A stretch of DNA of 64,000 nt. It comes from Escherichia coli. GTDB taxonomy: Bacteria; Pseudomonadota; Gammaproteobacteria; Enterobacterales; Enterobacteriaceae. The notes below the pieces were generated by a model. It had not been told where the DNA came from and ran no database searches. It saw only the letters and a program-made list of their open reading frames with translations. The stretch is taken from NCBI RefSeq assembly GCF_044324875.1, contig NZ_CP172185.1. One strand, 5' to 3'. Shown here piece after piece: positions 62,099 to 64,000 of this stretch. A program made the translations under genes and the position numbers. The stretch's first letter is position 1, and every line of letters starts with the position of its first letter.

Positions 62099-64000
62099 AT
62101 GCTTTCAACACAATTTAACAGGGATAATCAACATCAAACCACCTCCAAACCGTCACTGCTTGCCGCCTGCATAGCACTGGCACTCTTACCTTCCGCCGCT
62201 TTTGCTGCACCAGCCACTGAAGAAACGGTGATTGTTGAGGGTTCAGCCACTACTCCAGTTGATGACGAAAATGATTACAGCGTAACGTCTACCTCTGCGG
62301 GTACCAAAATGCAGATGACTCAACGTGATATTCCTCAGTCGGTCACTATTGTTAGCCAGCAGCGGATGGAAGATCAGCAGTTACAAACTCTGGGCGAAGT
62401 GATGGAAAACACGCTGGGGATCAGCAAAAGTCAGGCGGATTCCGATCGTGCTCTTTATTATTCCCGCGGATTCCAGATCGATAACTATATGGTTGATGGT
62501 ATCCCCACCTATTTTGAATCGCGCTGGAATCTGGGCGACGCACTTTCTGATATGGCACTGTTTGAACGCGTAGAAGTTGTGCGTGGCGCGACAGGCCTCA
62601 TGACCGGGACGGGTAATCCATCTGCGGCAATTAATATGGTTCGAAAACACGCGACCAGTCGTGAATTTAAAGGCGATGTCTCGGCGGAATACGGTAGCTG
62701 GAACAAAGAACGGTATGTGGCGGATTTACAAAGCCCACTCACCGAAGATGGTAAAATCCGCGCACGAATTGTCGGCGGCTACCAGAATAACGACTCATGG
62801 CTGGACCGCTACAACAGTGAAAAGACCTTCTTCTCCGGCATTGTCGATGCTGATTTAGGCGATCTTACGATGCTTTCAGCCGGTTACGAATATCAGCGTA
62901 TTGATGTTAATAGCCCAACCTGGGGCGGTTTACCGCGCTGGAATACTGATGGCAGCAGCAACAGTTACGATCGCGCACGCAGTACCGCACCTGACTGGGC
63001 GTACAACGATAAAGAGATCAACAAGGTCTTTATGACCCTGAAGCAGCGGTTTGCTGATACCTAGCAAGCGACACTGAATGCCACCCACTCCGAAGTCGAA
63101 TTTGACAGCAAAATGATGTATGTCGATGCCTATGTAAGTAAAGCGGATGGTATGCTGGTTGGGCCATACAGTAATTATGGACCTGGCTTTGATTATGTCG
63201 GCGGCACCGGTTGGAACAGCGGCAAACGTAAAGTTGATGCGCTGGATTTGTTCGCTGACGGTAGTTATGAATTGTTTGGTCGTCAGCACAATCTAATGTT
63301 TGGTGGCAGTTACAGCAAACAAAACAATCGTTACTTCAGTTCATGGGCCAACATCTTCCCGGATGAAATTGGCAGTTTCTACAACTTTAATGGCAATTTC
63401 CCACAAACCGACTGGTCACCACAGAGTCTGGCGCAGGACGATACCACACATATGAAATCGTTATATGCTGCCACTCGAGTCACCCTTGCCGATCCGCTGC
63501 ATCTGATCCTCGGCGCACGTTATACCAACTGGCGGGTTGATACGCTGACTTACAGCATGGAGAAAAACCACACCACGCCTTATGCTGGTTTGGTATTTGA
63601 CATCAATGACAACTGGTCGACCTACGCCAGCTATACCTCTATTTTCCAGCCGCAAAATGATCGTGACAGTTCAGGCAAATATCTGGCTCCAATCACCGGT
63701 AACAACTACGAGCTGGGTCTGAAATCGGACTGGATGAATAGCCGTCTGACCACCACGTTAGCCATCTTCCGTATTGAGCAGGATAATGTCGCTCAGTCCA
63801 CCGGTACACCTATCCCCGGCAGCAACGGCGAAACCGCCTATAAAGCGGTGGATGGGACAGTCAGTAAAGGTGTGGAATTTGAACTCAACGGCGCAATTAC
63901 CGACAACTGGCAGCTGACGTTTGGCGCAACGCGCTATATTGCAGAAGATAACGAAGGAAACGCCGTTAATCCTAATCTGCCACGCACCACGGTTAAAATG
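62099..64000 (+). pseudogene. fhuE: TonB-dependent ferric-coprogen/rhodotorulic acid receptor FhuE with an in-frame amber codon at 63062..63064; frame stays open to the window end
   Basis: ORF 62099..63064 stops at ...KQRFADT-TAG; the same frame continues QATLNATHSEVEFDSKMMYVDAY... to position 64000. Confidence 0.85.

Follow-up and report, generated by a model that had tools for sequence, protein, structure and literature searches.

A probably recent amber mutation at a former Dcm site has made fhuE a pseudogene in an Escherichia coli genome

FhuE is, on the strength of its RefSeq product name and of established knowledge, presumed to be the coprogen and rhodotorulic acid receptor. Dcm methylates the inner cytosine of CCWGG on both strands. 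The classical amber hotspots of lacI, described reportedly by Coulondre, Miller, Farabaugh and Gilbert in 1978, are said to lie at Dcm CCWGG sites, and more specifically at CCAGG sites where CAG changes to TAG on the coding strand. CCWGG is an established hotspot of G:C to A:T changes in E. coli (PMC13250602; PMC10710837). In Salmonella, fhuE has been inactivated independently in Typhi and Paratyphi A, and its loss has been discussed as a possible host adaptation (PMC2658671).

The fhuE copy described here resembles each of these systems in part. Like the lacI hotspots, it carries an amber-creating G:C to A:T change at the inner cytosine of a CCWGG site, and the change recurs in independent lineages. 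Unlike in lacI, it is the template strand of CCTGG that bears the target cytosine, which makes the coding change TGG to TAG; methylation is presumed from the motif, and the amber alleles come from natural populations, not from laboratory selection. As in Salmonella Typhi and Paratyphi A, the same receptor gene has been lost independently in different lineages, but Salmonella is another genus and the likeness is one at the level of the gene (PMC2658671). The nearest likeness is to fhuE genes already annotated in RefSeq E. coli genomes (S19-651, CUVET21-37 and others) as pseudogenes with an internal stop, which share with the present copy the gene, its synteny and an identical TAG at codon 322; in contrast to these, the present allele has a background that differs by 36–40 nucleotides over 1.9 kb. 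The same internal stop is thus already known, and the mechanism is a textbook one. In a literature search of limited extent, no paper was found that names fhuE W275 or W322 as hotspot alleles.

The features of the locus are given below by their positions in the window, i.e., the whole 64,000-nucleotide stretch of E. coli DNA that was analysed; the evidence for each is in parentheses.

62099..64000, + strand: fhuE pseudogene, for a ferric-coprogen/ferric-rhodotorulic acid TonB-dependent receptor (99.6% nucleotide identity to MEW, synteny, Pfam, 6E4V)
62099..63061, + strand: residual N-terminal open reading frame of 321 amino acids (signal peptide, plug and first part of the barrel)
62919..62923, either strand: second in-frame Dcm site, CCTGG over Trp275, intact in the window (sequence)
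63060..63064, either strand: former Dcm site, CCTAG here and CCTGG in intact alleles (sequence)
63062..63064, + strand: in-frame amber codon, codon 322, Trp in intact alleles (window and SRA contigs)
63063..63063, + strand: mutated base, G to A (base-by-base comparison with MEW and ST2747)
63113..64000, + strand: downstream remnant with barrel sequence only and no signal peptide (gene calls, Pfam barrel)

The assignment of this gene to fhuE, as in the original prediction, is borne out by 99.6% nucleotide identity to the annotated fhuE of MEW and by the order hinT–fhuE–ptsG, which is the usual arrangement. A 2-kb segment matches annotated fhuE in 5,425 of 5,426 complete RefSeq E. coli genomes. 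The open reading frame at 62099..63064 (+) encodes 321 amino acids ending in KQRFADT and is closed by TAG at 63062–63064. Translation confirms that this codon 322 is the sole stop in the frame from 62099 to 64000, which then continues with QATLNATHSEVEFD and stays open up to the end of the window; the gene, 2,190 nucleotides as a whole, extends beyond the window edge. The closest intact alleles are those of MEW (99.6% nucleotide identity) and ST2747 (99.4%), and in both codon 322 is TGG (Trp), from which the window differs by one G to A change at 63063. Of the seven remaining differences from MEW fhuE, six are synonymous and one is missense. The prediction of a single TGG to TAG nonsense change therefore holds against every close intact allele. 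The window allele itself is absent among the 5,426 complete genomes, where its nearest intact relative is 99.6% identical. Nor do reference FhuE proteins end at this point: they are 729 amino acids long, and the structure in PDB 6E4V covers residues 37–729. The codon-322 lesion is real and lies in an otherwise conserved gene of 729 codons, which excludes a chance boundary between open reading frames. With the stop at codon 322, the window copy lacks the uninterrupted 729-residue frame; it is a pseudogene member of fhuE, with the orthology and domain architecture of that gene but without its intact frame.

The domain boundaries of the intact MEW allele indicate what the lesion removes. Pfam places the Plug at residues 75–175 and TonB_dep_Rec_b-barrel at residues 272–700, and the allele matches the "FhuE receptor" of PDB 6E4V (E = 0; residues 37–729); the start of that structure at residue 37 sets the boundary of a signal peptide of approximately codons 1–36. 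This is the architecture of the solved structure, i.e., an N-terminal plug followed by a 22-strand TonB-dependent barrel. Residues 322–729 are lost, and with them, as originally predicted, most of the β-barrel: a product cut at 321 residues retains signal peptide and plug but little of the 22-strand barrel. Gene callers give a separate 391-amino-acid open reading frame from an internal ATG at 63113 on three contigs identical to the window. Translation would end after 321 residues, the 391-residue downstream frame has no signal peptide, and no functional outer-membrane receptor would form. From these domain boundaries, FhuE is predicted to be null in this strain, so that coprogen, rhodotorulic acid and ferrioxamine-type siderophores would no longer be taken up through it. 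No polar effect of the amber codon is expected, because fhuE is monocistronic and the downstream ptsG is convergent. Upstream of the gene, the best match to a simple 19-mer Fur-box consensus at the fhuE promoter is only 11 of 19 positions, at 61981–62005, a score that is uninformative.

Retention of function through readthrough of UAG, by an amber-suppressor tRNA (a caveat of the original prediction) or by recoding, is extremely improbable. The frame downstream of TAG is indeed intact, but an intact downstream frame is what a recent pseudogene would show. Within the 64-kb window, ARAGORN detects two prophage tRNAs, tRNA-Arg(tct) and tRNA-Met(cat), and no suppressor with a CUA anticodon; PGAP calls a pseudogene with the same codon-322 amber in six genomes. 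Strong suppressors are not known to be usual in natural E. coli isolates, and no UAG recoding system is known in this species. Recoding of UAG as pyrrolysine or selenocysteine was rejected, because E. coli is not known to possess a Pyl system and selenocysteine is encoded by UGA.

Several lines of evidence bear on whether the base itself is real. Complete genomes are often nanopore-based, and nanopore basecallers miscall G/A and C/T at methylated motifs, Dcm sites included. A sequencing or assembly artefact, including systematic nanopore G↔A miscalls at CCWGG, could therefore have faked both the amber codon and its recurrence, and the position of the change exactly on the methylated motif, together with the origin of two carriers of the two different ambers in one Zurich collection, would fit such an error. 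Against this, contigs from three separate sequencing runs (SRR8502383, SRR21142071 and SRR8502404) match the window exactly over the 2.3–4.9 kb compared; the possibility that resequencing would show TGG is thus contradicted by independent runs, which likewise carry TAG. The amber is also present in a fourth run, ERR8703441, where 47 of 4,902 flanking and genic positions are different. The exact 321-amino-acid product is present on 11–12 contigs of a public protein collection.

For eight carrier alleles, the exact truncated product was also looked up in a collection of 15 billion proteins, and all eight were found, with sources that include NCBI, ENA and Logan. For three alleles with the W322 amber, the exact product occurs on 100, 34 and 107 contigs, and for five alleles with an amber at W275 on 967 or more, 119, 21, 64 and 3; each truncated product tested is thus on 3 to more than 967 contigs. 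KDA80540.1 and the TPA entries among these sources are, we assume, short-read assemblies. The genes flanking fhuE in the carrier genomes encode standard intact WP proteins, and the equivalent motif at Q686 is without any such "error". The occurrence of the amber alleles in many independent assemblies indicates that they are real and inherited; on the same ground a nanopore methylation-motif artefact was rejected, and artefact in general is very unlikely.

Two of the window-identical contigs span the gene as far as its end, and in these the only stops are codon 322 and the natural terminator at codon 730; the window fhuE carries no second lesion. The last 300 nucleotides upstream of fhuE differ from MEW at only one or two bases. 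The lack of a second lesion and the near-identity of the upstream region indicate that inactivation was probably recent.

The mutated base lies in a particular sequence context, which the original prediction did not mention. The ancestral sequence at 63060–63064 is CCTGG, a Dcm (CCWGG) site, and in the window it reads CCTAG; apart from this newly created one, the 1.9 kb of fhuE within the window contains no CTAG. G63063 is position 4 of CCTGG and pairs with the inner cytosine of the bottom-strand 5'-CCAGG-3', so that an inner cytosine of an ancestral CCWGG has undergone C to T, seen on the opposite strand as G to A. In the mechanism that we propose, the 5-methylcytosine paired with G63063 would have deaminated to thymine, the resulting T:G mismatch would have escaped very-short-patch repair by Vsr, and replication would have fixed CCTAG, turning the TGG of Trp322 into the amber TAG. 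By motif, position, transition type and recurrence, the W322 lesion has the marks of a Dcm hotspot mutation as far as these can be read from sequence. An ordinary replication error would give the same change, and the deamination origin of one historical mutation is beyond proof. We consider that fhuE is a recently inactivated pseudogene, produced by one G:C to A:T transition at 63063 that probably arose by deamination of a Dcm-site 5-methylcytosine, with a probability of roughly 0.85. That many niches do not require fhuE is probably the reason why the allele persists.

There are four Dcm sites in fhuE, three of which can yield an amber codon (W275, W322 and Q686). The recurrence of stops at these and other codons was surveyed in 5,426 complete genomes with concatenated 45-mers representing every TGG to TAG and TGG to TGA change on three allelic backgrounds. 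As megablast needs an exact word of 28 bases, a variant-centred 45-mer seeds only on genomes that have the variant base. Counts from these probes are lower bounds, in that a SNP near the centre of a probe may cause an allele to be missed. The TGG probe matched 29 genomes. TAG was found at W322 in six genomes, at W275 in 11, and at W234, W416, W506 and W604 in one each; TGA was found at W143, W416 and W654 in two genomes each and at W201 and W275 in one each. Hence, 17 of 21 genomes with TGG to TAG changes have them at the two Dcm codons among 15 Trp codons, against four genomes for the 13 non-Dcm Trp codons together and eight for TGG to TGA at all 15.

A second probe, covering all CAG to TAG, CAA to TAA and CGA to TGA changes, matched 19 of the same 5,426 genomes: seven with Q87*, five with Q605* (including IAI39 and CE10, probably one lineage), four with Q5* (including strain 042) and one each with Q93*, Q211* and Q655*. 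Q87* and Q605* are common although they are not at Dcm sites, which shows that lineage inheritance inflates genome counts. Q686 (CCAGG, CAG to TAG), the third amber-capable Dcm site, has no carrier in the 5,426 genomes; under equal rates and with only about seven events, this silence has a P of about 0.06 and is not significant. Overall, two of approximately 66 possible transition-to-stop sites, W275 and W322, hold 17 of the 48 carrier genomes. When events are counted conservatively, 6–9 fall at Dcm sites and 15–25 elsewhere, counts that rest on comparison of fhuE alleles, not on a whole-genome phylogeny; the binomial P for Dcm enrichment under equal site rates is 4e-5 to 5e-4, according to the way in which independent events are counted. 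Separately, one genome, 2017.18.04CC, has an IS1A insertion in fhuE.

The W322 amber occurs on different fhuE backgrounds. The 45-mer of the window matched six of the 5,426 genomes (S19-651, CUVET21-37, FDN-11, WWCOL-315, SW070917 and GPEC1240), in all of which PGAP annotates fhuE as a pseudogene with an internal stop. The six alleles form three groups, with differences from the window at 36–40 of 1,902 positions; the W322 amber alleles are mutually 10–44 nucleotides apart. Altogether, W322TAG is found on five allelic backgrounds and W275TAG on at least two to six. The recurrence of the codon-322 amber across E. coli marks it as a commonplace allele. The W275 amber, 47 codons upstream, is likewise a CCTGG to CCTAG change over a Trp codon, and all seven W275 loci fetched read CCTAG, on up to six allelic backgrounds. 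This amber is found far more widely than the W322 amber of the window: the commonest W275* product, of 274 amino acids, is in about 2,019 collection blocks under the source name Shigella flexneri, and four of four contigs fetched for it have CCTAG at codon 275. The W275 amber thus seems to have reached fixation in a large lineage.

A single origin of the amber followed by its spread among fhuE backgrounds through homologous recombination, the tract in the window being imported, would also place one stop on several backgrounds. E. coli recombines often, and some W275* alleles do share long identical tracts around the stop (nucleotides 403–1083 in one pair), as does a further W275* set that includes the STEC2018-607 allele. 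For W322, though, identical tracts around TAG between carrier alleles are only about 25–300 nucleotides, and a tract shared with the window would have to be very short, as the nearest differences from the other W322* alleles are 10–28 nucleotides to the right and 15–164 nucleotides to the left of TAG. In addition, the allele of the CUVET21-37 group is only one nucleotide from many intact alleles, and different ambers sit on one and the same allele in S19-651 (W322*) and STEC2018-607 (W275*), whose fhuE genes differ over 2,190 nucleotides at those two bases only. Both of these strains are Swiss stool isolates. The short shared tracts and the CUVET21-37-type allele make recombinational sharing unlikely, so that independent recurrence is the simpler reading of the W322 amber. 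Spread from a single origin, judged unlikely since the shared tracts are short, is given a small probability.

Independent recurrence at a hotspot is compatible with a further possibility, in which loss of fhuE is positively selected through host adaptation or receptor escape and the hotspot only supplies the mutation. Independent fhuE nulls are many, with single-transition stops in at least 48 of the 5,426 complete genomes, the IS1A-disrupted copy in one genome, the W275* product in about 2,000 blocks under the name Shigella flexneri, and the separate inactivations in Salmonella Typhi and Paratyphi A (PMC2658671). Yet relaxed selection together with a hotspot would also be expected to give recurrent loss, more than 99% of the complete genomes were unmatched by the nonsense probes, and no paper in the literature searched gives FhuE a receptor role for a phage or bacteriocin, FhuE being present in gene lists only. 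In the literature searched for fhuE together with "premature stop", the papers concern cirA, not fhuE. Adaptive loss of fhuE is possible, but we think it rather unlikely as the driving force, and relaxed selection together with the hotspot is sufficient for the pattern.

The rest of the window can be described briefly. A lambdoid prophage part fills approximately positions 1–39100 and adjoins potC; it encodes a tail tape measure protein, terminase, portal, a Rha regulator and an exonuclease, with an excisionase and an integrase at about 37716–39072 and the tRNA-Arg(tct) and tRNA-Met(cat) genes at 20978–21131, and relatives with 97–99% identity are present in a few E. coli genomes. An IS1 copy of 768 bp at 42280–43047, flanked at 42271–42279 and 43048–43056 by a 9-bp target duplication, TGTACATCG, is inserted in a homologue of the gene for a TPM-domain protein. 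In strain 51489, the nearest complete genome for this region, IS1 is elsewhere, in ymfA. The core part at 40000–64000, from potD to fhuE, has at most 98.6% identity over 22 kb to any of the 5,426 genomes. Judging from this comparison, the lineage of the window appears to be poorly represented among complete genomes, or the potD–fhuE region appears to be a mosaic.

Taken as a whole, the fhuE of the window is an ordinary, probably recent nonsense pseudogene from a textbook hotspot, and its proper annotation in this genome is as a pseudogene. Loss of FhuE uptake would have only a minor effect on phenotype, since several other iron routes are open to E. coli. Variants at CCWGG motifs can be nanopore artefacts, but the fhuE ambers described here are real. 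They provide an example from natural populations in which a textbook hotspot repeatedly yields the same null allele, and they illustrate homoplasy, in that unrelated strains may share a nonsense allele without recombination or selection. More tentatively, and with some doubt on our part, the CC-TGG codons of W275 and W322 may be weak points of the gene, such that Dcm ambers would be a leading route of fhuE loss in E. coli, Shigella and relatives, with the loss favoured by selection, not just tolerated, in some host-restricted lineages such as that of the W275* allele under the source name Shigella flexneri. If this is true, gene loss in natural populations would be foreseeable in part from the placement of methylation sites.
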